12,773 bases of DNA from Candidatus Thorarchaeota archaeon. Its GTDB lineage: Archaea > Asgardarchaeota > Thorarchaeia > Thorarchaeales > Thorarchaeaceae. Position numbers and translations under genes: made by a program. Position 1 is the stretch's first letter, and each line of letters opens with the position of its first letter. The stretch lies in assembly GCA_016839605.1 (NCBI GenBank), contig JAEOTX010000162.1, positions 1 to 12,773 of the forward strand, read 5' to 3'. A model generated the notes under the pieces. It had not been told where the DNA came from. It saw nothing but the letters and a program-made list of their open reading frames with translations, and made no database searches. Shown piece by piece: positions 3 to 12,773 of this stretch.

Positions 3-1445
3 GATATCACTGTTGGCAATTGGTTTGACTTTCTGGATAGTACAACAGGATTCGCATTTCCAAATAGAGACCTAGATCCTTTAGTTATACAGGCGAAAGT
101 CACACTGGCAATCAAGGCAAAATCTGCGATACTGGATGCACCTGATGTGAGCTGGCGTGAGAAGGCACGTGTGCTCCTAGCTCTCTCACGAACAGGATGC
201 ATTAGACTGGCAAAGGAGCTATCATTAGCGGTAGGCAAACCAACAATGGTCCCGACAGATGCAGATTCCTCAGTCCTCGGACCGTATCTTTGGGGGACAC
301 TGCAATACTATATTCACAGCAGTGACGTTGGATTCCTTCGAAGCGTATCTCCATTTATTGATGACATGACGAAAAGACTTCTAGAAACAATCGAAGAGCA
401 ACAGATTGTACCTGAACCCCCAGCGATTACTGAAGATTTGACAGAAATCCTAACTCCTGAAGACAAGGAATTTCTTGGAGTAGATGAGATACTTGATGTC
501 ACCAGAGATGCTCTCGGTGAGCCAGCGGATCCTGAACCTCAAGTTCCAGAAGTTATTGAGCCATGGCAACTTACTGATCTCTCTGATGCCCTCTGGATGC
601 TATCTGCACTTGTACTTGTTAGTAATGCATACGACACTCTAGGAAATAAGGAGAGATTCGACTCTATCAGTGAAGCAGTTGTGCAATACATGTCGTTCGT
701 ATCAGAGAATGCAGAGCGACTAGCTGCTGAGAAGGATGTGCTTGCATCTGCGAAGGGGCAGACGGATGCGTTATCTTTGCTCGATGCGATTGTTCTCCTA
801 GGAGGCGACCTTATTTCGAGTGACTTTGTTGAGGCTATAGTTGCCTCAGTAAATAGCTTGGTCACCAAGCACTTAGTGAGACTGCCTGATCCAGAAGGAA
901 AGGTGTCTAGTCATTTAGGACTCAGACTTGCTCACTATCATGTCCTCAGGAAGGATGAGTTTGTTACTCTACAAATCCTGGAGCGAATGATGGAATTCGT
1001 TTCAGAGTTTTACACAATCCCGGAATTCGTGAACCCCCGAACATCCGGTGGTAGTCATGGTGATGGTTGTAGTCTTATGGCTGCTGTAGATCTCCTGTTA
1101 CTCGTACGAGAGATGATCCTGTCTGAAGATGGTGAGGATCTAATCATTCTTCCTGCTATCTCAGATGAGTGGTATACGTCTTCAATTCCATTGACGGTGA
1201 AATCACTCCCGACGAGTCATGGCGAGGTGAATATTGGAGTCGGAGTTTCAACCAATCAGCATCAGATTGAAGTTCGGATGAAGAATCTCCCAAGAGAGCT
1301 GATCATACACGTTCCTACTCACTTTGCATTGCCCATGATGAAGGCGTTTGGTGGCGGAATTGTAGACCGAGCAAAGGACCCCGACTCCCCATACATCAGG
1401 ATTATGCCACTCTCCACCAATATAGTCGCGACAGTCCATCGGTAA
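3..1445 (+). CDS. Six-hairpin (alpha/alpha)6 glycosidase-like protein, C-terminal part (5'-truncated by the window edge), possibly catalytically degenerate
   Basis: The frame of the 147..1445 ORF is open back to position 3 (DITVGNWFDFLDSTTGFAFPNRDLDPLVIQAK...), so the GTG at 147 is probably not the true start. A helical body is followed by PEFVNPRTSGGSHGDG...LLLLVREMILSEDGEDLIILPAISDEWY...VKSLPTSHGEVNI. This is the last-helix plus beta-sandwich tail typical of GH65/GH78/GH95-like six-hairpin proteins. The exact family cannot be assigned by eye. Confidence 0.6.
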   Translation, partial: DITVGNWFDFLDSTTGFAFPNRDLDPLVIQAKVTLAIKAKSAILDAPDVSWREKARVLLALSRTGCIRLAKELSLAVGKPTMVPTDADSSVLGPYLWGTLQYYIHSSDVGFLRSVSPFIDDMTKRLLETIEEQQIVPEPPAITEDLTEILTPEDKEFLGVDEILDVTRDALGEPADPEPQVPEVIEPWQLTDLSDALWMLSALVLVSNAYDTLGNKERFDSISEAVVQYMSFVSENAERLAAEKDVLASAKGQTDALSLLDAIVLLGGDLISSDFVEAIVASVNSLVTKHLVRLPDPEGKVSSHLGLRLAHYHVLRKDEFVTLQILERMMEFVSEFYTIPEFVNPRTSGGSHGDGCSLMAAVDLLLLVREMILSEDGEDLIILPAISDEWYTSSIPLTVKSLPTSHGEVNIGVGVSTNQHQIEVRMKNLPRELIIHVPTHFALPMMKAFGGGIVDRAKDPDSPYIRIMPLSTNIVATVHR

Positions 1446-1499: not shown

Positions 1500-3104
1500 A
1501 TGGTGACAGCCACCTTGAGTGATATACGCAAGTGTGATTTTCTCGTGATTGGTACAGGAATCTCTGGCCTGTTGTTCTCTCTCAAAGCGTCAAAACATGG
1601 TAGAGTGCATCTGCTGACCAAAGCAGCCCTGGCTGATAGTGCGACAAGTAAGGCACAAGGTGGAATTGCTGCAGTCATCTCAGAGGAGGACTCTCTAGAT
1701 TCGCATATCGAGGACACAATCCGTGTGGGTGCAGGTCTCTGCCATCGAGATGTAGCTGAGAATATTATACGTCAAGGACCCGCGATTGTAAAGGAACTGG
1801 TGGAGTTCGGAGTCGCTTTCTGTGAAGATGATAAATGCGATAAGTTCGACTTAGGAATGGAGGGTGGGCACAGTCATAGAAGGGTCCTGCATGTGAAGGA
1901 CCACACAGGTGCAGACATTGAGAATGCGCTCATAGCCAAGGTCCAAAAGGAATCCAATATCGAGATTTTCGAACACCATATGGCTGTCAACCTCTTCACT
2001 CAGAACGCGAGGGTCATGGGTGCCTATGTTCTTGACCTCAATACCGGAGAGATTGACCGTTTTATTTCCAAGATTACAGTTCTTGCCACTGGGGGTGCAG
2101 GAAGGGTCTTTCTTTACACGAGCAATCCTGACATCTCTACAGGTGATGGCATTGCGATGGCCTATCGTGCAGGGGCCTCGATCACTAATCTAGAGTTCAT
2201 CCAATTTCATCCAACAATCTTGTTTCACCCCAAAATCCGCTCATTCCTCATCTCAGAGGCACTGAGAGGAGAGGGCGCGGTGCTCCTTGGTCCTGATGGA
2301 GAACGATTCATGGACAAGTATCACAAAGATGCAGAACTAGCCCCTCGTGACATTGTGGCCAGAGCAATTGACAATGAACTGAAGCAGACCGGTGCTGACA
2401 ATGTCTTCTTGGACATATCCTCCAAAGATGCAGATTTTGTTCGGGACCGATTCCCTGCTATCTATGAGACCTGTCTTCGGGCAGGCATCGATATCACGAA
2501 GGAACCGATTCCTGTGGTACCCGCAGTGCATTACGTCTGTGGTGGTGTCAAGGCGGACATCAATGGTCGGACTGATGTCGCTGGCCTCTATGCAATCGGA
2601 GAGACTTCAGGTACAGGCTTCCATGGCGGGAACCGGCTCGCTTCCAACTCACTCTTAGAAGGTGCAGTCTTAGCACATAACGCCTCCATAGATGTCGCAG
2701 AAGCGATTAAGCAGCCAATAGAGGTGGTAGAGATGCCTCCCTGGGACCCTGGCGAAGCAACTGACCCTGATGAGCATGTTGTCATCTCCCATCTTTGGGA
2801 TGAGGTTCGCAGGCTAATGGTCAACTACGTTGGCATCGTGAGGACAAACAAGAGGCTCATCCGTGCTCGAAACAGGATCGGGTTTATCGCCAAGGAGATC
2901 GAGCAATTCTACTGGGACTTTGTTATCACTCCAGATCTTGTGGAGCTACGTAATATCGCCACTGTTGCAGAACTGATTATCAAGATGGCTCGGATGCGGA
3001 AGGAGAGTCGGGGGGCTCATTTCAACAGGGACTATCCAGATCGGCTCGAAACACCAGTTGACACAGTGATTAAGAAGGGTCTACTTCCCATCAATGACAA
3101 TTAG
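1500..3104 (+). CDS. nadB: L-aspartate oxidase
   Basis: FAD-binding DFLVIGTGISGL, plus AQGGIAA, EGGHSHRRVLH, EFIQFHPT, LISEALRGEG, ELAPRDIVARAI, HYVCGG, HGGNRLASNSLLEG and C-terminal RKESRGAHFNRDYP. It lacks the covalent-FAD His motif of SdhA/FrdA. Length 534 aa. Confidence 0.93.
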   Translation: MVTATLSDIRKCDFLVIGTGISGLLFSLKASKHGRVHLLTKAALADSATSKAQGGIAAVISEEDSLDSHIEDTIRVGAGLCHRDVAENIIRQGPAIVKELVEFGVAFCEDDKCDKFDLGMEGGHSHRRVLHVKDHTGADIENALIAKVQKESNIEIFEHHMAVNLFTQNARVMGAYVLDLNTGEIDRFISKITVLATGGAGRVFLYTSNPDISTGDGIAMAYRAGASITNLEFIQFHPTILFHPKIRSFLISEALRGEGAVLLGPDGERFMDKYHKDAELAPRDIVARAIDNELKQTGADNVFLDISSKDADFVRDRFPAIYETCLRAGIDITKEPIPVVPAVHYVCGGVKADINGRTDVAGLYAIGETSGTGFHGGNRLASNSLLEGAVLAHNASIDVAEAIKQPIEVVEMPPWDPGEATDPDEHVVISHLWDEVRRLMVNYVGIVRTNKRLIRARNRIGFIAKEIEQFYWDFVITPDLVELRNIATVAELIIKMARMRKESRGAHFNRDYPDRLETPVDTVIKKGLLPINDN

Positions 3105-3117
3105 AGGAGCTTCACAA

Positions 3118-3633
3118 ATGAGCAGAAGGGCACACGCTCAGTCATTCATGCTGCCAATTGCTGTCACAATCCTGATGCCTCTTCTCATCCTGCTTCTCAC
3201 TAGTTGGATGCCCGGATGGCTGCTGATATTTCCACTCAACTATCTTGCAGTTGTTCTCTCCATTCTTTCTATAGTTGGGGGGCTGTATCTTCTTGCATCC
3301 ACTATCAGAATGTTTGATAGAATCGGACAAGGCACTCTTGCACCTTGGACTCCCGCTCAGAAGCTAGTTGTTCATGGAATCTATCGTTATGTGAGGAATC
3401 CAATGATAATAGGAGTTCTCTTGATACTTCTTGGAGAATCCATCTTTTTCGGTTCTATCTGGCTGTATCTGTGGTTCCTGTTTTTCCTTATTGGGAACCA
3501 TTTCTATTTCATCAAGTCTGAGGAGCCAGGTCTTGTGAAAAGATTCGGCGACGGGTATGTACGATATGCTGAGAACGTTCCTCGGTGGATTCCACGTAGG
3601 ACTCCATGGGACGGCTCTTCAGACAGTGCTTGA
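3118..3633 (+). CDS. Isoprenylcysteine carboxyl methyltransferase / phospholipid methyltransferase (ICMT/PEMT) family membrane protein
   Basis: Hydrophobic TM segments plus GTLAPW...LVVHGIYRYVRNPMIIG and EEPGLVKRFGDGYVRYAENVPRWIPR. I prefer the ATG at 3118 over 3094 because AGGAG (3105-3109) lies 8 nt upstream of it. Confidence 0.88.
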   Translation: MSRRAHAQSFMLPIAVTILMPLLILLLTSWMPGWLLIFPLNYLAVVLSILSIVGGLYLLASTIRMFDRIGQGTLAPWTPAQKLVVHGIYRYVRNPMIIGVLLILLGESIFFGSIWLYLWFLFFLIGNHFYFIKSEEPGLVKRFGDGYVRYAENVPRWIPRRTPWDGSSDSA

Positions 3634-3656
3634 ACTCCTCGTGCAAAACCTGATGC

Positions 3657-3664
3657 TTTTATCA
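3657..3664 (+). promoter_or_regulatory. Possible TATA-like box for the Ldh_2-family gene
   Basis: TTTTATCA in the 75-bp intergenic gap, about 45 nt upstream of ATG 3709. Weak match. Confidence 0.3.
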
Positions 3665-3708
3665 TAGAAACATCCGGTATCGCCTATCAGCTCTAGGGCG
3701 AATCCACA

Positions 3709-4806
3709 ATGAGTGAGAGGTTAATTCACTGGAAGAATCTGTACAGCTTTGTTAAGCGAGTAATGATGAAGTGCGGCGTGCCTGAAGAGAGCGCACATCA
3801 CGTAGCCGACAATCTTGTTGTTTCGAATCTGAGAGGCATCGACTCCCATGGAGTGGGCCGTGTGAAGAGGTATGTTGGAGGAATCAAGGATGGATACATC
3901 ATACCTGATATTGCTCCAGAGGTTGTGAAGGAGAACAGCGTTCTCGCCAATGTAGATGCTAGAAACGGAGTGGGACAGAATGCTGGTATGTTTGGGATGA
4001 ATCTGGCCATTGAGAATGGGCGTAAGGAAGGGATTGGACTCGTCACTGTCTTCAACTCGAACCACTATGGCTTTGCAGGCTACTATGCCATGAAGGCTCT
4101 TGAGCACGACCTAATCGGAATATCACTCACCAACTCAGAGCCCCTCGTCGTTCCTACCTTTGCCAAGGATGCAATTCTGGGTACAAACCCAATCTCCATC
4201 GCAGTTCCTGGCTCGCGAAACCGTCCCTGGGTGATGGACCTTGCAACAAGTGTTGTCCCCCGAGGAAAGCTCGAGGTCTATGACCGACTTGGGCAGAAGA
4301 CCCCTCTGGGGTGGGCCACTGATGAGAGAGGGATCAGTACCGAAGACCCGGCTAAGGTTCTGAACAATGTCTTGCACGGCTATGGAGGAGGCATTCTGCC
4401 CTTAGGCGGTGAGGGTGAACTACATGGAGGGCACAAGGGCTACGGGCTCTCAATGATGGTAGATGTGCTGAGTGGTGTTCTATCTGGCTCCAATTTTGGA
4501 CCTGACGTTATATTCAGAAAAGAAGGGGCTGTGAATCACCCCAGGGTTGGTCATTTCTTCATGGTTCTCGATCCCGCGTTCTTCATGGGCATTGATGCGT
4601 TCAAGAAGAGGATGGATGACTATATTGACCTTCTCTATAAGTGTGACAAGGCTGAGAACTGCCCTCGGATATACGTTCACGGAGAGAAGGAGTTTGAGAT
4701 GCACGATAAGCGGGCCAAGGATGGTGTACCTTTAGACGCAAAGACAGTGGAGAGTCTCACAGGCTTTGCTGATGAGTACGATGAAGAGATCGAGTTCATG
4801 GATTGA
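3709..4806 (+). CDS. Type-2 malate/L-lactate dehydrogenase family oxidoreductase (Ldh_2; ComC/AllD/YbiC-like), substrate unknown
   Basis: Motifs RGIDSHG, NSNHYGFAGYY, GTNPISIA, DLATSVVPRGK, GGHKGYGL, GHFFMVLDP. Length 365 aa. Confidence 0.9.
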   Translation: MSERLIHWKNLYSFVKRVMMKCGVPEESAHHVADNLVVSNLRGIDSHGVGRVKRYVGGIKDGYIIPDIAPEVVKENSVLANVDARNGVGQNAGMFGMNLAIENGRKEGIGLVTVFNSNHYGFAGYYAMKALEHDLIGISLTNSEPLVVPTFAKDAILGTNPISIAVPGSRNRPWVMDLATSVVPRGKLEVYDRLGQKTPLGWATDERGISTEDPAKVLNNVLHGYGGGILPLGGEGELHGGHKGYGLSMMVDVLSGVLSGSNFGPDVIFRKEGAVNHPRVGHFFMVLDPAFFMGIDAFKKRMDDYIDLLYKCDKAENCPRIYVHGEKEFEMHDKRAKDGVPLDAKTVESLTGFADEYDEEIEFMD

Positions 4807-5605
4807 CAGGAATTGGCTTGACTAGAGGTGCATTTCTGAATCTATTGTTGTAGGGGTTTCGAGGCCCCCTCGGCGACCTGCTGTCACCCCACCTTCCCTC
4901 ATAGTCGACGAAGTTCGTGTCATCGATGGACTTCAGAACTGGTTCTGTGTGCCAGACCTCTCCCCCATCTGCGGTGGTATCTCTCCAGAACAGGGCAATC
5001 CTCCTCTTCGGGCCATCAGGTGAGGGGAAGATTGCATGAGACCCCAGCGCTACCCACACGTGGACATGGTCGTCAGTGAGGATGATCGGCTCCGGGGTGA
5101 ACCCGGGAAGTGTATAGACCCCCGGATATGACACAAGCAAGGCATCAAGGTGGTTCGAGAGCAGCCAGATAGTACCCGGGGTCTTCGACGCAGGTAGATA
5201 GTGTCTGACCTCCACATGCTCCCAGTCTCCCTTGTGTTTTCCCCGTCTGGCAGGGGCTCCCGGGAAGTCGTTGTATCGATACCAGAACCAGTACTTAATC
5301 TGGAACATGTTCTCATCGTGCCAGTATTCATAGTAGCAGGGGGCATCGCTCTGGAACATCTTGGGAGTCATATCTTCCTTGAATTGGGTCCAATCAGAAC
5401 TAAACTTGGAGAATGTCTCCTCTGCGTCAGAGGGATAACAACAATGCTCTCCCTCTCTAGGGTGGAAATGAAGAATCGGTGCGTAGGCTTGAATGAATGC
5501 CTCAGGATCCGCAGAAGGGTCGAGCATAGCACCTCGGTTGTTGGAATTGTTCCTTATGGTTGTGTCGTCAAAACGAAGAGTGCTATCTCTCAAGCTCACT
5601 GACAT
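4796..5605 (-). CDS. Vps62-like protein (NPP1/Vps62-related fold); start may instead be the ATG at 5527
   Basis: Ordered Vps62-type motifs: YAPILHFHPRE..YPSD, IKYWFWYRYND, GKHKGDWEHVEVR, VWVALGSHAIFP, DTTADGGEVW, YEGRWGD..PRGP. The alternative ATG at 5527 (MLDPS) follows GAGGTG at short spacing. No signal peptide or TM segment is visible. Confidence 0.75.
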   Translation of the reverse strand: MSVSLRDSTLRFDDTTIRNNSNNRGAMLDPSADPEAFIQAYAPILHFHPREGEHCCYPSDAEETFSKFSSDWTQFKEDMTPKMFQSDAPCYYEYWHDENMFQIKYWFWYRYNDFPGAPARRGKHKGDWEHVEVRHYLPASKTPGTIWLLSNHLDALLVSYPGVYTLPGFTPEPIILTDDHVHVWVALGSHAIFPSPDGPKRRIALFWRDTTADGGEVWHTEPVLKSIDDTNFVDYEGRWGDSRSPRGPRNPYNNRFRNAPLVKPIPVNP

Positions 5606-6644
5606 AGCGGTCCATGAACATCTTTACCCATCGGTAGAAGTCTCCAAACATCTCCCTGACCTTGGGTAAATCTACCCTGTCCCGCAGGATTATATCCACA
5701 ACTGCCTTTCTCAAGAATGGGTAGTAGTGAGGTAGTGGAAAAACGTTCTTGGGGAACACCCGGTGATTGGTGAGGAAGATGTTGATTCGCTCTACCCAAC
5801 GGGCATTGATGACATCTTCAGAGTAGCTACTAGGGTCTTCAACACTAAGTGAGTCTAGCTCGGAAAGAATAGGCGAGAAAATCTCTCGCTGGACCTGGTC
5901 AAATGTGAAACCTTGAGCCTTGGATGTCTTGTCCTCAGCGATTCTTCGGTAGAGGTCTGCCAGGTCATCTGAACCCGGGACCGAATACATCGCCCTCTGA
6001 AAACGAATGAGCCTGGACATTTCAGATGCGAGCCTTCTCTCTTTCTCAAGAACCGTGAACACATGGATGAAGTTGGTACTGTCCCATGAGTCTGCTTCAA
6101 ACCAGTCCTTGTAGTTCAAGATGGTATTGCGATAGTCCTTGGGCATTCGCAGCTCATGCGGGCTAGTGATACTCCAGATATTGAAGAACACAAATGGCGG
6201 GTAGTCCATGGCTAACTTCTCTGTGATTCGATAGCTAGGGAAGCAGTAGTTCCCGTCCAATACTATCAAGTCTGGGTTGAACACGCCCTTTCCCTTCTGT
6301 GAAGCAAACTGTGTAGTTGATTTAGTTATCATCTCAACAGCTTGAGAGGGTGTCAGTGGCTGGAATGCTCGTGAGCGGACAAGATGCAGATTTTCTGCTA
6401 ACGGAAGATAGTACGCCGTTCCGGTCTTCTCAAGGCTGAATGCGGTCTCAAAGCCGCCTCCGTTTCCTATAGTAAGATGCTGCATTGCTTGGAACAGGTC
6501 CTGATTTGTATGATTGATGTCGATGACGAGGACCTTCAATGGTGGGTCTTGTGATAGTCCCCAAACAGCGAGGTTCAGGGAGATTGGAGTCTTTCCACTA
6601 CCTCCCTTGTTGCTGGTGACGATCACAGTCAATGGCTTCTTCAT
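5583..6644 (-). CDS. Divergent MinD/ParA-family (SIMIBI) P-loop ATPase with an unrecognised C-terminal region
   Basis: Deviant Walker A SNKGGSGKT with the signature Lys, then ISLNLAVW, KVLVIDINHTNQDL (A'/switch I) and PDLIVLDGN (Walker B). The ATG at 6644 overlaps the upstream TGA (ATGA) and has GGGTGG upstream, so I prefer it to the GTG at 6656. Confidence 0.75.
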   Translation of the reverse strand: MKKPLTVIVTSNKGGSGKTPISLNLAVWGLSQDPPLKVLVIDINHTNQDLFQAMQHLTIGNGGGFETAFSLEKTGTAYYLPLAENLHLVRSRAFQPLTPSQAVEMITKSTTQFASQKGKGVFNPDLIVLDGNYCFPSYRITEKLAMDYPPFVFFNIWSITSPHELRMPKDYRNTILNYKDWFEADSWDSTNFIHVFTVLEKERRLASEMSRLIRFQRAMYSVPGSDDLADLYRRIAEDKTSKAQGFTFDQVQREIFSPILSELDSLSVEDPSSYSEDVINARWVERINIFLTNHRVFPKNVFPLPHYYPFLRKAVVDIILRDRVDLPKVREMFGDFYRWVKMFMDRYVSELER

Positions 6645-7570
6645 GATAGTATCCACCCTATTATGTACTCAAGTACAGTGCCCCATCCTATGTACAGAAC
6701 GACATCAGTGATGATCTGAATTATTACGACTCCGAGGAATGTTGTAAGGAGCTTCTTGATGATACCTCTAGGTGATGCAATTCGTGAAAGGTCGCTCTTG
6801 GACCTCTCAAGCAATCGTATATCTGACTTCATGTCTCTCGTTGCATCCTCTAGCTTTGCCCTCACATAACCAGGGTCTCTTGAGAGGAGTGCCTCTTCAA
6901 CCAGAATCATCTCGTTTCTCCATCTGGTCATATACTCAGTCAGTGAGCCAGCGATTCGGGTTCTATTGGCTTCGACCATTGTTTCATAGCGGCCTATCTC
7001 ATAGACTACTACCTTGATCACACTGGCAAGGACTACGAATGTTCCAAAACTCAATGCGCTGCTGATGAAGAAGCCGATGTTGAGGGCTGGGCTGTCGGGG
7101 AAGAACTCCTGAAGGATTGAGAAACCCGCCAGTCCACTCAGTTTGTAGACGGCAATGAAGAAGAGTAACCTGATTGTGAGGGAAAGTCTGGAGAGGCTTA
7201 GCCTCCACCAGGAGACCGTTGGAGTACCCCCTGCACTGAATGATTTGTGGATGAACACAGAGAAAATGATCCCTCCAGTGTTCAGGATGAACATGAGTGA
7301 CATGAGAAGCAGGCCAAGACCAAAAGCCACTCGAACCCATCCCGTCACTCCCATGACACCATCGGCGACTGCCTCCAGTGCACTTTGAAGGGCAATAAAG
7401 TCCCAGTCTACGAATGCTTGCTCTATCTGCTGCATAAGCTCATTGTGTGTGAGAAGATATCCAAAGAAGAAGACTCCATAGAGGGCGATTGCGACTATAG
7501 ACCCAACATTGACTGACATGAACAGATTTTCAATACGGCTGTCGTGCGCGGTCCTATGGGTCGTATCCAT
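6641..7570 (-). CDS. Uncharacterised multi-pass membrane protein (about 4 TM, a ~78-aa soluble helical region, then a C-terminal TM region)
   Basis: 309-aa ORF with hydrophobic stretches at about aa 21-41, 81-107, 130-153, 163-190 and 274-308, and a charged helical segment at aa 191-268. It has a 4-nt stop/start overlap with the ATPase gene. Confidence 0.75.
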   Translation of the reverse strand: MDTTHRTAHDSRIENLFMSVNVGSIVAIALYGVFFFGYLLTHNELMQQIEQAFVDWDFIALQSALEAVADGVMGVTGWVRVAFGLGLLLMSLMFILNTGGIIFSVFIHKSFSAGGTPTVSWWRLSLSRLSLTIRLLFFIAVYKLSGLAGFSILQEFFPDSPALNIGFFISSALSFGTFVVLASVIKVVVYEIGRYETMVEANRTRIAGSLTEYMTRWRNEMILVEEALLSRDPGYVRAKLEDATRDMKSDIRLLERSKSDLSRIASPRGIIKKLLTTFLGVVIIQIITDVVLYIGWGTVLEYIIGWILS

Positions 7571-7604
7571 TCCCTATACCCCGTGGCGTGCGGCTGGTAA
7601 AAGA

Positions 7605-7674
7605 GTACTATTAATTGCTATTCAAGTATATTTAAGCGTTTGATGTAGGAACTTTACACTGTATATAAATTGCT
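7605..7674 (-). promoter_or_regulatory. Archaeal promoter region (TATA boxes) for the membrane protein/ATPase operon
   Basis: AT-rich 121-bp intergenic region. On the - strand: TTTATATA (7669-7662), TTAAATA (7635-7629, preceded by CAAACGC) and ATTAATA, all oriented toward ATG 7570. Confidence 0.6.
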
Positions 7675-7691
7675 GGTGAATTTCTCCGCTT

Positions 7692-10616
7692 TTAGATATC
7701 AAGAAGCAATGTCAAGAGACCCCGCTGCTTGATCTTAGTGTGGATGATACAATCATTTTCCACTCTCACGTCAACTCCTTCTATTGGTGTTTCATCCGCG
7801 CGTGCTGGAGTCGCATTTTTGATATCAAAACCAAGGTGGACTGTACACTCCTGTTCTGTATCAGACGAGTTCCATAGTCTGAGAGCTAACTGATCTCCAT
7901 CTTCACACTGCTTGAATGCTGACATCTCAATGCACTCTGGTTCAACGTTCATGTATACAGCACTATGAACCCCTTTTGCTCCTTCTCTCCCAGGAACGAG
8001 TATAGTGGTCATGGGAAGAAGGTATGCTTCGGATTCGGCTAGGATGTCCTCGGACCACTCTCCTCCATGCGGAGTGATTGCGTACTCGAATATCTGAATG
8101 CCAGGACACTGTCCTCCGGGGGTTTCCAAGATTGGGCCTGCAGCATCTTTTCGCGTCCTAAGTTTCAGTTTTGAGAGCCACCCAACTGATCTCAAGGTGG
8201 TAAGTGCAATTGTGCCTCCTTGCTCCTCCAGAATTTCAAACTCAAGCAAGCCTCTTGTTGTTACAGTGAGCCCTCGGGTGTCAGAATTCAAAGAGACAAA
8301 TCTTCGCAATGGATAAGTGGGTGCAACGGGCTGTTTCCAGTTCGAATCATCATCCAGTGGCCGGATGGGTCTCTCTATGAGGTCAAAAGCACTGTCAGCA
8401 AGCACTGTCTTCGGATTGGTGCCACTGGGAAAGAGAACCCGCAGTCTATGATCTTCAGCCTGGTTGATGAACTCGGTGGCTACATGCAATGTTGGACTGT
8501 TGGCATGCATTGTGACTTCTGTAACAAAGTCACAAAGGACTGTTTCTTCAACACATCCCTCGTTTCCTTGCATTGCACCTAACGGTATTTCAAGTACTCC
8601 TGTTATTAGCAATGAACCAACTAATGGGCCAGTGTGAACGACCTCCACATCGACCTCAATGTCGCCAGAACGAATAGACGAGTCTGTTTTTGTTGGGCTG
8701 TAATCATACTCATCGCCTATATCTCCAGAGTCTTCCCATTCTAGGAGTCCATTGTACTCTTCGCCATTCCTCTTGTCAGTCAGACGGATAGTGCCATTAG
8801 ACGAGGCGGTCACCTTGATGAAATTGTTTTCCAGTACATTGTCAGTGCCGCTCACCGCTCCTTCGACATCTGCACCCGCCTCTTTAGTGGTGCTAGTCAA
8901 ATCCAATCTAAGCGTACCTAAGCCATTTAGTTCTCTAATCTGCAAGGCTAGGGTCAAGAACTCCTCTCTGTCTGCAATGAGTCTAGCATCAGCATCCTTT
9001 CTAGTTTCACGACTAAGGAGTTGAACTGGAATTGCGTCTCCCCGTTCATTATGGAGAGATGGGATTCCCATCATTTCATTCTCAGCATATGCCTTCCTGG
9101 CCCAGACCTCAACTATCCTATTTGCAGAATTCACTCTGATTAGATATGCTGTAGAAACATTTGTCAGAACCTCAATGAATTGTGGGAACATAAGGGCAAT
9201 CGCACTGAAATCAAACTCAAACTCGGTGATTAGTTCTTTCTCAATCTCAATCTCTCTCGTTTGAGAGGGCGATGGATCAAATCCCCATCTCTTAACGAAA
9301 TCGAGGTGCACCTCGTTCTTTGCCGCCTCAAGGGGAGTTTCAGGTTCTAGCTCCTCATTGGCAAGCTGGATGTCTGCTAGTCGAGTGTATCGAAAGTCTG
9401 ATGCTGGTATTTCCATGACAACTATATCATTCCGCACTCTCGGTGAGGGATTGACAACTACTATTCCTGTAGACTCTGTTTCATGCACTTTTACAATGGC
9501 TTCGTATGCGTCTTCCAAAACAGATTGAGCAATCTCGTCCACCCATCTGAATCTCTGAACCATGTCGTCATGGACCTCATCTATACTGCATCCACATATG
9601 TCATCATGGGGGTGGTTCCGCAGAAGATACTTCCATGCCATTGTAATCTGGTCTCTAGGATACGCTGATCCGAGCGCATATGCAACTGAACACCACGGTT
9701 CCACCGTTCTCTCAAGTAGCCTCTGAACATACTCGTTCATTTGCTTGAGGTATATCCTAGTGGAATACACTCCTGAAAGCAGGTTCTCATATTTGGACCT
9801 TCTAAACTCGCCCCGAAATCGCTTGAGGCTATCTTGCTTCTTCTTTATCCTATCAATGAACTTGGGAAGCGTGCCAAAGATAATCTTGTCTTTGTATTTC
9901 GCATTGTAAGTCCGTATTACTTCAGGAACTTGAGGCTGCGGCAGCACATGGTCTGAACCATTCATCAAGAGAACAGTGCCTATCCGTGACCAGGGTTTGA
10001 GCTTCTGAACTACTTCGTCAAGTGTGTCCAGTGCGTCATCAATATCTTCTGGCAGCCTGGCTGCATTGCCGTATGAATATGGCAACCAGTGAGTCAGGAC
10101 CTCGCTCCCATCTGAGGCCTCCCATATGAATTCCGCACCGAGATCGTCAATCTCATTGCCTGTCCCCCGGGCAAAGATTGCCGAGTTGTAATTGAACTGT
10201 GAGAGTATCATCGGAATTTGACTGACATGTCCAAATGGATCTGGTATGTATCCTACATCTATGACTCCACCATACTCCCTACCAATTCTACGTCCCATCA
10301 GGAGGTTGCGAATCAGAGCCTCTCCAGACACAAGGAACACATCTGGCAGAACGTACCATGGTCCAATATCAATACGTCCAGCTTCCACATGCTCTGTAAA
10401 TCTCTCGCGCTGATGTGGCACCATCTCGAGATAGTCTTCTATCACAACAGTCTGACCATCAAATGTGAATGTCTTGAACTCCGGGTCTTCATCTAAGATG
10501 TCCAGAAGTTTGTCAACGAGATTCACAAGTCTGAGCCTGAATTGCTGAAATGTTCTGTACCAAGCCCTATCCCAATGGGTCTCACTGATTAGAAAGGCCT
10601 CAACATGGTCCTGCAT
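7692..10616 (-). CDS. Glycoside hydrolase family 38 (alpha-mannosidase, MngB-like)
   Basis: Zn ligands in THWD, GPWYVLPD, nucleophile in GYIPDPFGH, NGSDH, NHPHDDICGCS. C-terminal domains include DSGDIGDEYDYSP, DHRLRVLFP, TLRSVGWLS and SAFKQCED. SD GGTGA lies upstream of the ATG. Confidence 0.93.
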   Translation of the reverse strand: MQDHVEAFLISETHWDRAWYRTFQQFRLRLVNLVDKLLDILDEDPEFKTFTFDGQTVVIEDYLEMVPHQRERFTEHVEAGRIDIGPWYVLPDVFLVSGEALIRNLLMGRRIGREYGGVIDVGYIPDPFGHVSQIPMILSQFNYNSAIFARGTGNEIDDLGAEFIWEASDGSEVLTHWLPYSYGNAARLPEDIDDALDTLDEVVQKLKPWSRIGTVLLMNGSDHVLPQPQVPEVIRTYNAKYKDKIIFGTLPKFIDRIKKKQDSLKRFRGEFRRSKYENLLSGVYSTRIYLKQMNEYVQRLLERTVEPWCSVAYALGSAYPRDQITMAWKYLLRNHPHDDICGCSIDEVHDDMVQRFRWVDEIAQSVLEDAYEAIVKVHETESTGIVVVNPSPRVRNDIVVMEIPASDFRYTRLADIQLANEELEPETPLEAAKNEVHLDFVKRWGFDPSPSQTREIEIEKELITEFEFDFSAIALMFPQFIEVLTNVSTAYLIRVNSANRIVEVWARKAYAENEMMGIPSLHNERGDAIPVQLLSRETRKDADARLIADREEFLTLALQIRELNGLGTLRLDLTSTTKEAGADVEGAVSGTDNVLENNFIKVTASSNGTIRLTDKRNGEEYNGLLEWEDSGDIGDEYDYSPTKTDSSIRSGDIEVDVEVVHTGPLVGSLLITGVLEIPLGAMQGNEGCVEETVLCDFVTEVTMHANSPTLHVATEFINQAEDHRLRVLFPSGTNPKTVLADSAFDLIERPIRPLDDDSNWKQPVAPTYPLRRFVSLNSDTRGLTVTTRGLLEFEILEEQGGTIALTTLRSVGWLSKLKLRTRKDAAGPILETPGGQCPGIQIFEYAITPHGGEWSEDILAESEAYLLPMTTILVPGREGAKGVHSAVYMNVEPECIEMSAFKQCEDGDQLALRLWNSSDTEQECTVHLGFDIKNATPARADETPIEGVDVRVENDCIIHTKIKQRGLLTLLLDI

Positions 10617-10644
10617 GATAAATCACCGTCAGTGAACTACCTCG

Positions 10645-10669
10645 ATTCATATTCTGCCCCAATATGAAT
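10645..10669. repeat. Perfect 9-bp inverted repeat ATTCATATT-N7-AATATGAAT (operator or RNA hairpin)
   Basis: Read directly from the galK-GH38 intergenic region. Outer arms also pair (CTAC/GTAG and AGTGAA/TTCACT). Confidence 0.7.
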
Positions 10670-10688
10670 GACTCGTAGGGGCGCTTCA

Positions 10689-11846
10689 CTAGCTTAGTCT
10701 ATCTACCAAGACCCCGCCAGGGATGTCAGACACATACACATCTGGTGTTGCACCTGTCTGAGCTTCGTAGGCCTCTGAGATTTCCTTTCTGAATCCTGCC
10801 ACATACTCATCGGCAACCATACTCAGAGTTGCTCCTCCTAGTCCTGCTCCAGTCATTCTACTTCCATACACGCCTTTGTGACTCCGAGCAATGTCAACCA
10901 ACAGGTCAAGCCTGGGGTGTGATACCTCATAGAGTTCTTTCGAGCTCTTATGCGACTCATAAAGGAGGACTCCAAAGCGACGTAAGTCTTCCTCCTCCAG
11001 AGCATTGATTCCCTCCCGAACACGGACATTTTCCAATACAACATGTCGAACCCGTCGAGCTAGTCTTTCATCTAGGATGTCATCTACATCCTCCAGCTGC
11101 TCTGGTCCAATCTCACTCAGATTCCGCAGATCCATACCACTCTCGTTGAGCTGAGTCAGTGCAGACAAGCATTCCGCCCGTCGCTCATTCAGCACATCTC
11201 CAGCTAGTCTAGAAACCTTCGAGTCGGTGATGACCATCTTGAGTTTGGGAGTCATCTGTATGCTCTTGGTCTGAAGATTGAAACATTTGATTGCTAACAC
11301 TGAATTGGGGTCTCCAAGTTGCGAGGTGAATTGGTCCATCACACCACACGAAACTCTACAAAAGAGACGCTCAGCCTCAAAAGCAATCATAGCTGCGGCC
11401 TTAGGATTCAAGGTAAGTCCACTTGCAGCAGAAATCAGGTTCACCATGGCGACCTCCAAAGCCGCTGAGGAGCTTAGGCCAGCTCCTATTGGGATATCTC
11501 CATGGATTACTCCTGTCAGGCCCGTTACTGCATGCTTTCTTCTCTCAAAGGCCCAATAGACGCCTTTCACATAACTGTCCCACTGAAGCACATCAGTCGA
11601 TTGTAAGCCCCTTGGCAGAAATGTGGAGCTCTCTTCAAAGTCCAGCGAAAAGATGTCAACCTCGTCAGAAGCAGCTCCTGCAGCCCAGACAAATCGATCG
11701 ATTGTAGCTGCCATTACCAGTCCGCTATTGTAGTCAGTGTGATTTCCCAGCACCTCTACTCTCCCCGGCGCTCTCGCAGCCCAGACAGCACGGTCCATTT
11801 TCTTGAGGCTCTGCACTCTATCATGCATCTTCGCTGGAAAATCCAT
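10689..11846 (-). CDS. galK: Galactokinase-family GHMP sugar kinase (variant sugar-binding motif)
   Basis: APGRVEVLGNHTDYN, IPIGAGLSSSAALE, CGVMDQF, RRVRHVVLENVRV, YEVSHPRLD and GSRMTGAGLGG. Its ATG directly follows the galT TAG. Confidence 0.85.
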   Translation of the reverse strand: MDFPAKMHDRVQSLKKMDRAVWAARAPGRVEVLGNHTDYNSGLVMAATIDRFVWAAGAASDEVDIFSLDFEESSTFLPRGLQSTDVLQWDSYVKGVYWAFERRKHAVTGLTGVIHGDIPIGAGLSSSAALEVAMVNLISAASGLTLNPKAAAMIAFEAERLFCRVSCGVMDQFTSQLGDPNSVLAIKCFNLQTKSIQMTPKLKMVITDSKVSRLAGDVLNERRAECLSALTQLNESGMDLRNLSEIGPEQLEDVDDILDERLARRVRHVVLENVRVREGINALEEEDLRRFGVLLYESHKSSKELYEVSHPRLDLLVDIARSHKGVYGSRMTGAGLGGATLSMVADEYVAGFRKEISEAYEAQTGATPDVYVSDIPGGVLVDRLS

Positions 11847-12773
11847 CTAAAGAGCCTCTCTCAGTTCCTCTGCAATATCTTCTGGAATCGAGTCATTGGT
11901 GTAGAGGCCTGCCCCCAGCTCAATGCCTGCCAGGTACTTCAATCTTGTACGGTCCCGCCACGGCGGATAGAACTCCACATGGAAGTGCCAATAGGGGTGG
12001 TTTCCAGTTGCAGGGCGGGGATGAAAGACCATCACATATGCTAGGTCTTCGAACACCTTAGAATATCGTCGAACAACGTCTTGGATTACCCGGCCAAGCT
12101 CAAGCAGATTATCCTCTAGGTCCACCAAACTTGACACATGCTTTCTTGGATAGATATGAACCTCATATGGGAGCCTCGCTGAGAATGGGACCAGTGAAAC
12201 GAAGTTGTCTGTTTCATTAATCACCCGTGATTCTAAGGACTTCAGTTCGTTCTCCAGCATCTTGCATACGAGACAAGTGTCTTCATTGTCCCAGAACTTC
12301 TTGGATTGGTCCAACTCTCTGGCGACTCTTGGAGGAACAAAGGGCAACGCATAGACCTGAGCATGAGGATGATCCAGGCTTACCCCAATCGCTCTCCCTC
12401 GGTTCTCAAACTGCATCACATACGAGATTCCGCTCTTCTTGTCGAGGTCTCTAAAGACCTCTAAGTATTCCTTGAAGACTCGTTCAAGCTGCTCATCATT
12501 CATCCTTTCAATCTGCTCGCTGTGATCAGGAGAGAGGAGGATTATTTTGCAATATCCATACGCTGGAGCATCCATTACAACATTCTCATCTAGAGGGATT
12601 GGCCCTGAGTCTGGACTAAGAGCAGGGAATCGATTATCCAGTGTAAGTACGCGCCATTTTCCTTGCGTTTCAGGACCGTCAGGGCAGAAGGGGCACGCAT
12701 AGTCTTCTTCCTGAAATGGCCTACTCGCCCTCTTGGGTGTTACAATTACCCACTCGCCAAGAAAGGAGTTCCA
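11847..12773 (-). CDS. galT: Galactose-1-phosphate uridylyltransferase (5'-truncated by a few codons)
   Basis: The frame is open to the window edge: WNSFLGEWVIVTPKRASRP...CPFCP...DNRFPAL. Catalytic FENRGRAIGVSLDHPHAQ, plus PYEVHIYPRKH, WHFHVEFYPP and KYLAGIELG. Confidence 0.92.
   Translation of the reverse strand, partial: WNSFLGEWVIVTPKRASRPFQEEDYACPFCPDGPETQGKWRVLTLDNRFPALSPDSGPIPLDENVVMDAPAYGYCKIILLSPDHSEQIERMNDEQLERVFKEYLEVFRDLDKKSGISYVMQFENRGRAIGVSLDHPHAQVYALPFVPPRVARELDQSKKFWDNEDTCLVCKMLENELKSLESRVINETDNFVSLVPFSARLPYEVHIYPRKHVSSLVDLEDNLLELGRVIQDVVRRYSKVFEDLAYVMVFHPRPATGNHPYWHFHVEFYPPWRDRTRLKYLAGIELGAGLYTNDSIPEDIAEELREAL

Follow-up and report, generated by a model that had tools for sequence, protein, structure and literature searches.

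A conserved two-gene unit encoding a polytopic membrane protein and a divergent ParA/MinD-fold ATPase in a subclade of Thorarchaeota

ATPases of the ParA/MinD group (Mrp/MinD, SIMIBI class) act only with a cognate partner, such as ParB, MinE or McdB, and in the switch I segment of MinD and Soj the second aspartate of a D-x-D motif is required for hydrolysis. A like logic, in which a SIMIBI ATPase works with a membrane protein that carries a cytosolic helical hairpin between transmembrane (TM) helices, is found in Get3/TRC40 with Get1/Get2 (WRB/CAML) and in ArsA with ArsB, whereas in split bacterial tyrosine kinases (BY-kinases) a gene for a membrane activator, CapA, is followed by one for a cytosolic ParA-like kinase, CapB. 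Here we describe a locus on the minus strand of contig JAEOTX010000162.1 (12,773 nucleotides, analysed over its whole length and hereafter called the window), from a Candidatus Thorarchaeota archaeon assembly (GCA_016839605.1) that comprises 259 contigs and is 80% complete. In it, a gene for a polytopic membrane protein (A) directly precedes that for a highly divergent ParA/MinD-fold ATPase (B), and a Vps62-like gene (C) follows. We consider it probable that A and B alone make up the true unit, a two-gene operon confined to a Thorarchaeota subclade, with B acting as a dimerising switch on its membrane partner A; a literature search found no description of this pair. The three genes span positions 7570-4796, and the elements under discussion are as follows:

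7571-7691, minus strand: leader of gene A, 121 nt of intergenic sequence with two TATA-like boxes, ATTTATATA and TTAAATATA, read from the sequence
6641-7570, minus strand: gene A, a 309-residue polytopic membrane protein of no known family
5583-6644, minus strand: gene B, a 353-residue, highly divergent ATPase of the ParA/MinD (SIMIBI) fold
4796-5527, minus strand: gene C, a Vps62-like (PF06101-related) soluble protein, probably of 243 residues

A genome-contig scan with B recovered 20 loci, against which all window proteins were then searched by tblastn. A lies directly upstream of B in every scanned locus that reaches that far, with B identities down to 59%; A and B overlap by 4 nt at one extreme and stand about 30 nt apart at the other, and the genes around the pair vary by locus (HhH-GPD glycosylase, helicase, DinB, PAS/GAF histidine kinase, radical-SAM enzyme, M23 peptidase). 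The closest loci come from metagenome-assembled genomes of Thorarchaeota, Promethearchaeota or Hermodarchaeota, and these relatives confirm the Asgard host that the preliminary description had considered. We then surveyed the phylum through a fixed sample of 400 Asgard genomes, with B orthologues called at E < 1e-100, and found orthologues of A and of B in an identical set of 23 genomes, all within one family; in all 23 the two genes are adjacent, single-copy, on the same contig and on the same strand. The pair is thus present in 23 of the 86 genomes of the family and in 9 of the 17 genomes of the window's genus. Pairwise distances among 16 loci are correlated between A and B with r = 0.96, a value reached by none of 2000 Mantel permutations. 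A and B are passed on together, though common descent by itself would give the same correlation. Of the module proposed earlier, the association of the membrane protein with the divergent ATPase is upheld as a genuine, conserved pair.

The compact layout first reported for the window, with three co-oriented and tightly packed genes, an ATGA overlap and a TATA-bearing leader, likewise holds on inspection of the open reading frames and the sequence. The TGA stop codon of A (6643-6641) lies over the ATG start of B (6644-6642), which is preferred to a GTG at 6656 because B homologues open with MK(K/R)P, and the 121-nt leader, with its two boxes, is a putative archaeal promoter of the A-B operon. 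Gene C, which ends at 4796, could begin at ATG 5605, overlapping B by 23 nt, or at ATG 5527, leaving a gap of 55 nt; the latter is favoured by the length of C homologues (228-250 residues) and by a 94%-identical locus (L013) in which the long form's first 24 codons fall in another frame.

The same comparative data separate C from the pair. The preliminary description had joined all three genes into one functional module, comprising a membrane anchor, an ATPase switch and a Vps62-like effector. The close spacing and shared orientation of A, B and C in the window are consistent with this proposal, as is the A-B-C order kept in every locus of the window's genus with sequence past B; moreover, the 55-nt gap between B and C shows no evident TATA-like box, which leaves read-through transcription possible. 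However, C-family genes are far commoner, occurring in 63 of the family's 86 genomes, where A-B occurs in 23, and by tblastn over the scanned loci C stands downstream of B only where B identity is at least 71%. It is missing from that position in at least 10 loci of other genera, and in genomes outside the window's genus that carry both A-B and C, C is either some 12 kb away from B or on another contig. Within the window's genus, five genomes carry C without detected A-B, one of them assembled as a single contig. A further locus, L067, reproduces the window backbone in the order GalT-GalK-GH38-C-Ldh2-PEMT-NadB with nothing between GH38 and C, and a search of its 1.7-Mb assembly found no B homologue. 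The recurrent neighbour of C outside the genus is instead NadB (L-aspartate oxidase), whose convergent gene sits directly beside C in the four such loci examined; the window and L067 have Ldh_2 and a PEMT-like gene between the two. Both the L067 slot without A-B and the NadB neighbour elsewhere thus indicate that C is part of the local syntenic backbone near NadB, and that it adjoins A-B only because of the position of A-B in this genus. C is a neighbour outside the conserved module and a near-core Thorarchaeaceae protein. A three-gene module is largely refuted by comparative genomics and we hold it to be very improbable: the Vps62-like gene does not stand as a third component, since the expected co-occurrence of the three genes in related genomes fails for C and its contexts differ outside the genus.

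The homology of C to Vps62 is supported through its relatives only. As a 269-residue protein the window's C scores 14.9 bits against PF06101 (cut-off 22.1, E 0.009), and in its 243-residue form it yields no match at E <= 0.01, while 18 of 26 aligned homologues match the family, with a best E of 3.9e-17. C is about 243 residues long, against a model of 541 positions, and is without a predicted TM segment. Its homologues share invariant H98, G100, D101, W102, E103, H164 and D183, and the core H-x-G-D-W-E-H together with H164 and D183 suggests a conserved polar, active or metal-binding site. A search of the PDB with the C profile returned nothing, leaving no solved relative, and a literature search found no account of archaeal Vps62 homologues. 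The data do not allow C to be linked to vacuolar sorting, and the earlier suggestion of a ligand-binding effector within a membrane-trafficking system is not supported. Separately, otherwise full-length C homologues in some genomes (G385, G342, G384 and G378) are interrupted by in-frame TAG, TGA or TAA codons and could be pseudogenes or assembly errors.

With the unit reduced to A and B, we examined the affinities of the ATPase. Sequence profiles detect B below their cut-offs and over the P-loop only: in Pfam, CbiA scores 20.8 bits (cut-off 25.4) and AAA_31 20.6 (cut-off 27), both restricted to residues 7-44, and in NCBIfam the scores for NF041546 (ParA_partition), minD_arch and minD_bact are 18.4, 14.1 and 13.9 bits against cut-offs of 180, 201.75 and 212.9, respectively. 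A profile search of the PDB likewise gave P-loop matches only, at E >= 0.09, and 18 of 19 clade members match CbiA at E <= 1, the best at 1.4e-07. Structural comparison places B in the ParA/MinD-type alpha/beta fold, with the plasmid protein pSM19035 Delta as the listed match of highest score (2oze_A, 14.0; root-mean-square deviation 3.9 over 236 aligned residues), followed by ParA (8ray_A, 13.0), McdA (6noo_A, 12.4) and Cfd1 (6g2g_B, 12.2); MinD, MipZ, FleN, BcsQ, TRC40 and NifH structures all score about 10-11.5, and Foldseek agrees weakly, with a best E of 1e-4. The ParA/MinD label of B is thus confirmed indirectly, by fold, and no subfamily can be assigned.

The motifs of B are both well preserved and atypical. 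A deviant Walker A with the signature lysine, N-K13-G-G-S-G-K18-T, is invariant in 24 B orthologues, as are the Walker B residue D130 and, in the switch I segment D42-I-N44-H-T-N47-Q-D49, the residues D42, N44, N47 and D49; the wider clade keeps G17 and K18 throughout and K13 almost throughout. Switch I therefore reads D-x-N-x-x-N-x-D, in contrast to the D-x-D of ParA/MinD proteins, and an asparagine in place of the second aspartate would be consistent with slow or partner-dependent hydrolysis. B is also some 100 residues longer than ParA/MinD proteins and differs from a typical ParA by an inserted three-stranded sheet in a beta-hairpin region (residues ~56-91), a disordered loop (204-217) and extra C-terminal helices.

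These features bear on the simplest conventional account, in which B would be a standard ParA for DNA partition or a MinD for cell division, with A as an unrelated neighbour. The best structural matches of B are indeed plasmid or chromosome ParA proteins, and one database record labels a B orthologue as a 'ParA family protein'. Such an account is nonetheless at odds with the strict co-occurrence and adjacency of A and B, and with ParA_partition and minD_arch scores far under the curated cut-offs. Neither a ParB or centromere-binding partner nor MinC, MinE or an equivalent is encoded next to B, where the neighbour is a polytopic membrane protein, and B does not carry the D-x-D of MinD. Furthermore, five canonical CbiA-type ATPases are already present in the window's genome, one of them a true ArsA/Get3 (284 bits), which argues that B belongs to an extra, specialised paralogue class rather than being the housekeeping MinD, ParA or Get3. 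We regard an ordinary ParA or MinD as very improbable.

Protein A has no match in Pfam, NCBIfam, PADLOC or PHROGs. Its homologues fall into 39 clusters, and all those with an organism name are Asgard, nearly all of them Thorarchaeota and one Hodarchaeota. An AlphaFold2 model (mean predicted local distance difference test score 75.5) is all-helical, and together with hydropathy it yields a layout of a short basic N-terminal tail, about four TM helices and a C-terminal TM region. Two predicted cytosolic elements stand out by their conservation: a loop at ~107-127 between TM2 and TM3, strongly conserved with the consensus I-H-R-S-F-S-A-G-G-T-P-T, and a long helix that runs from TM4 into a helical hairpin (~193-268) bearing the conserved stretch G-Y-V-K-A-K-L-E-D-A-T-R.

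The hairpin invites comparison with the Get and Ars systems, and A-B could in principle work as they do, with a SIMIBI ATPase that docks on a cytosolic coiled-coil hairpin presented by a membrane receptor or transporter and either delivers a client or energises transport. We take the D-x-x-H-x-x-x-D-x-F pattern in switch I of B to resemble the D-P-A-H-x-x-x-D-x-F of Get3/TRC40, an unconfirmed lead only. In contrast to this similarity of layout, no significant evidence of sequence or structural homology was found between A-B and either Get3-Get1/2 or ArsA-ArsB; B is without the CxxC zinc motif of Get3, and it does not combine a PF02374 score above cut-off with a CxxC dimer zinc site and a helical client-binding subdomain; the genome has a canonical ArsA/Get3 at another locus. 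On balance, a Get- or Ars-like mode of action appears distinctly unlikely. The split BY-kinases offer the other parallel, that of gene adjacency, and the CapAB chimera 2ved is among the Foldseek matches of B. B nevertheless differs from BY-kinases in having no C-terminal tyrosine cluster (two tyrosines in the last 20 residues) and no Walker A' D-x-D; it scores 16 bits against 231 for TIGR03018 and 11 against 108 for TIGR01007, in both cases over the P-loop only, and the locus has no polysaccharide-export context.

A-B is best read as an operon for a dedicated membrane partner and an ATP-dependent dimerising switch, by analogy with ParA/MinD ATPases that depend on a cognate partner, with a polytopic membrane protein in the place of ParB, MinE or McdB, and we regard the pair as an undescribed, lineage-specific variant of the theme of a ParA/MinD ATPase plus a dedicated partner. 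In the mechanism that we infer, B would bind ATP, form a nucleotide-sandwich dimer and act as a switch, and A would serve as its dedicated polytopic membrane partner. B may dock on the cytosolic parts of A, be it the hairpin, the TM2-TM3 loop or the basic N-terminal tail, and thereby organise or gate a membrane-associated process; candidates are that B positions or clusters A in the membrane, that it gates A, or that it docks on A as on a receptor, in the way of Get3-Get1. A complex prediction with both proteins supplied as alignments returned a score of 0.00, which weighs neither for nor against binding.

To place B in a broader context, we searched 1.84 billion cluster representatives with a hidden Markov model of the B orthologues and retrieved 18 proteins at E <= 1e-3. 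One of these representatives covers all B orthologues, and the others are about 20% identical to them and mostly 305-390 residues long; they share the Walker A G-K, D-x-N-x-x-N-x-D, a Walker B that usually reads V-D-T and a P-x-N near the C-terminus. In the 400-genome sample, such distant relatives occur in five other Asgard families, for instance in 8 of 12 genomes of one of them, and in none of the 135 genomes of the largest family sampled. A polytopic membrane protein with at least four predicted TM segments is directly adjacent in 11-12 of 16 contexts, often overlapping the ATPase start, and one membrane-protein family recurs in six loci. These observations are compatible with the tentative proposal that A-B is the best-conserved case of an undescribed, apparently Asgard-centred class of ParA/MinD-like ATPases, defined by D-x-N-x-x-N-x-D, a length of about 330-390 residues and the 18 representatives, in which each member would have its own polytopic membrane protein and form with it a new membrane-organising or -gating machine distinct from Min, Par, Get and Ars. 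We consider this extension possible, with the balance of expectation against it. Profile-profile comparison of A with the membrane proteins beside the distant relatives (P0213, P0214 and family A6) gave nothing significant, with probabilities below 1%, and the sole aligned stretch lies just after TM4 in both and is not evidence.

Several contexts of the distant relatives are of interest in themselves. At 2704-7305 of JAEOTF010000230.1 (L037/L038), tandem B-like paralogues of 373 and 357 residues carry the degenerate Walker A sequences S-K-G-S-A-G-K-T and S-N-R-S-A-S-G-K-T and are preceded by a 10-TM protein and followed by a classic AAA ATPase (403 residues, helical N-terminal domain). A 727-residue protein (P0211) fuses an N-terminal STAND-type NTPase, with nSTAND2 and AAA_16 matches, to a C-terminal B-like ParA/MinD domain. 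Finally, at 1583-11047 of JBNGVH010000018.1 (L039), a distant B-like gene lies amid MazE-like and PIN genes, an Rce1-like protease, a coiled-coil protein with C-terminal TM segments and a large CHAT/C25-like protease, a neighbourhood that looks like a conflict system.

Could A-B itself be an accessory conflict, defence or mobile-element cassette, with an NTPase sensor or switch and a membrane effector? The patchy presence of the pair in the family and in the genus, with presence/absence polymorphism at one syntenic site, would fit such a cassette, as would the MazE-PIN and CHAT-protease surroundings and the STAND-type fusion among the distant relatives and the MinD/ParA-like ATPases reported in the aloposons, mobile elements of Heimdallarchaeota (PMC8813620), the sole related mention that the literature search turned up. 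On the other side, A, B, C and five distant relatives of B have no PADLOC match at E <= 0.01, and a match to the P-loop was all that PHROGs yielded. Neither an integrase nor a GC anomaly was found, and a repeat scan of the locus detected no terminal and no flanking repeats. Alignment of the L067 GH38-C gap to the GH38-A and B-C gaps of the window revealed neither a target duplication nor shared promoter sequence as an insertion scar. Moreover, the pair is single-copy, strongly conserved and divergent in step with host taxonomy, and GalT-GalK precedes it in another genus too, so that the simplest history is one of vertical descent with repeated losses. A cassette of this kind is a serious rival account, but it seems to us unlikely.

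Several points weigh against the reading of A-B as a two-gene switch. The pair is patchy even inside the window's genus, where a single-contig genome listed as 77% complete has C and no A-B, which implies that A-B is dispensable. Related genomes are non-independent samples, and the counts given above thus overstate the support. Switch I of B is atypical and its competence as an ATPase is a prediction. What is shown is the gene structure, the conservation, the co-occurrence, the fold and the motifs; the physical contact of A with B, the ATP switch and the process served are what we infer. Lastly, since no homology can be detected between A and the membrane proteins beside the distant relatives, the recurring theme of ATPase and membrane protein could be convergent or coincidental.

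The remainder of the window is in line with the earlier account of unrelated metabolic flanks. On one side of the three genes lie a GH38 mannosidase, GalK and GalT, and on the other a convergent Ldh_2, a PEMT-like methyltransferase and NadB; a domain search of the window found no ParB, MinC/MinE, pilus, archaellum or chemotaxis domain in the genes adjoining them. The GalT-GalK adjacency (window 7692-12773; also L021, L024 and L070) is kept across several Thorarchaeota genera, and the GH38 mannosidase, present in only some of these clusters, seems to have been inserted into them. On the plus strand, the genes for NadB (1500-3104) and for the PEMT-like membrane methyltransferase (3094-3633) share 11 nt at 3094-3104, and this overlap, with a pairing kept in relatives, suggests co-transcription. 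A partial open reading frame at 3-1445 (plus strand, 480 residues) is without a Pfam match and is kept, at 74-77% identity and at the corresponding place, in related Thorarchaeota loci (L015, L017 and L030).

No known organisms are more closely related to eukaryotes than the Asgard archaea, and little is understood of how these cells organise their membranes and cytoskeleton. Dropping C from the module avoids a misleading 'proto-vacuolar-sorting' story, and what is left, the A-B pair, would be a small and testable two-component system for membrane organisation in Asgard cells that would widen the known partner range of ParA/MinD ATPases.

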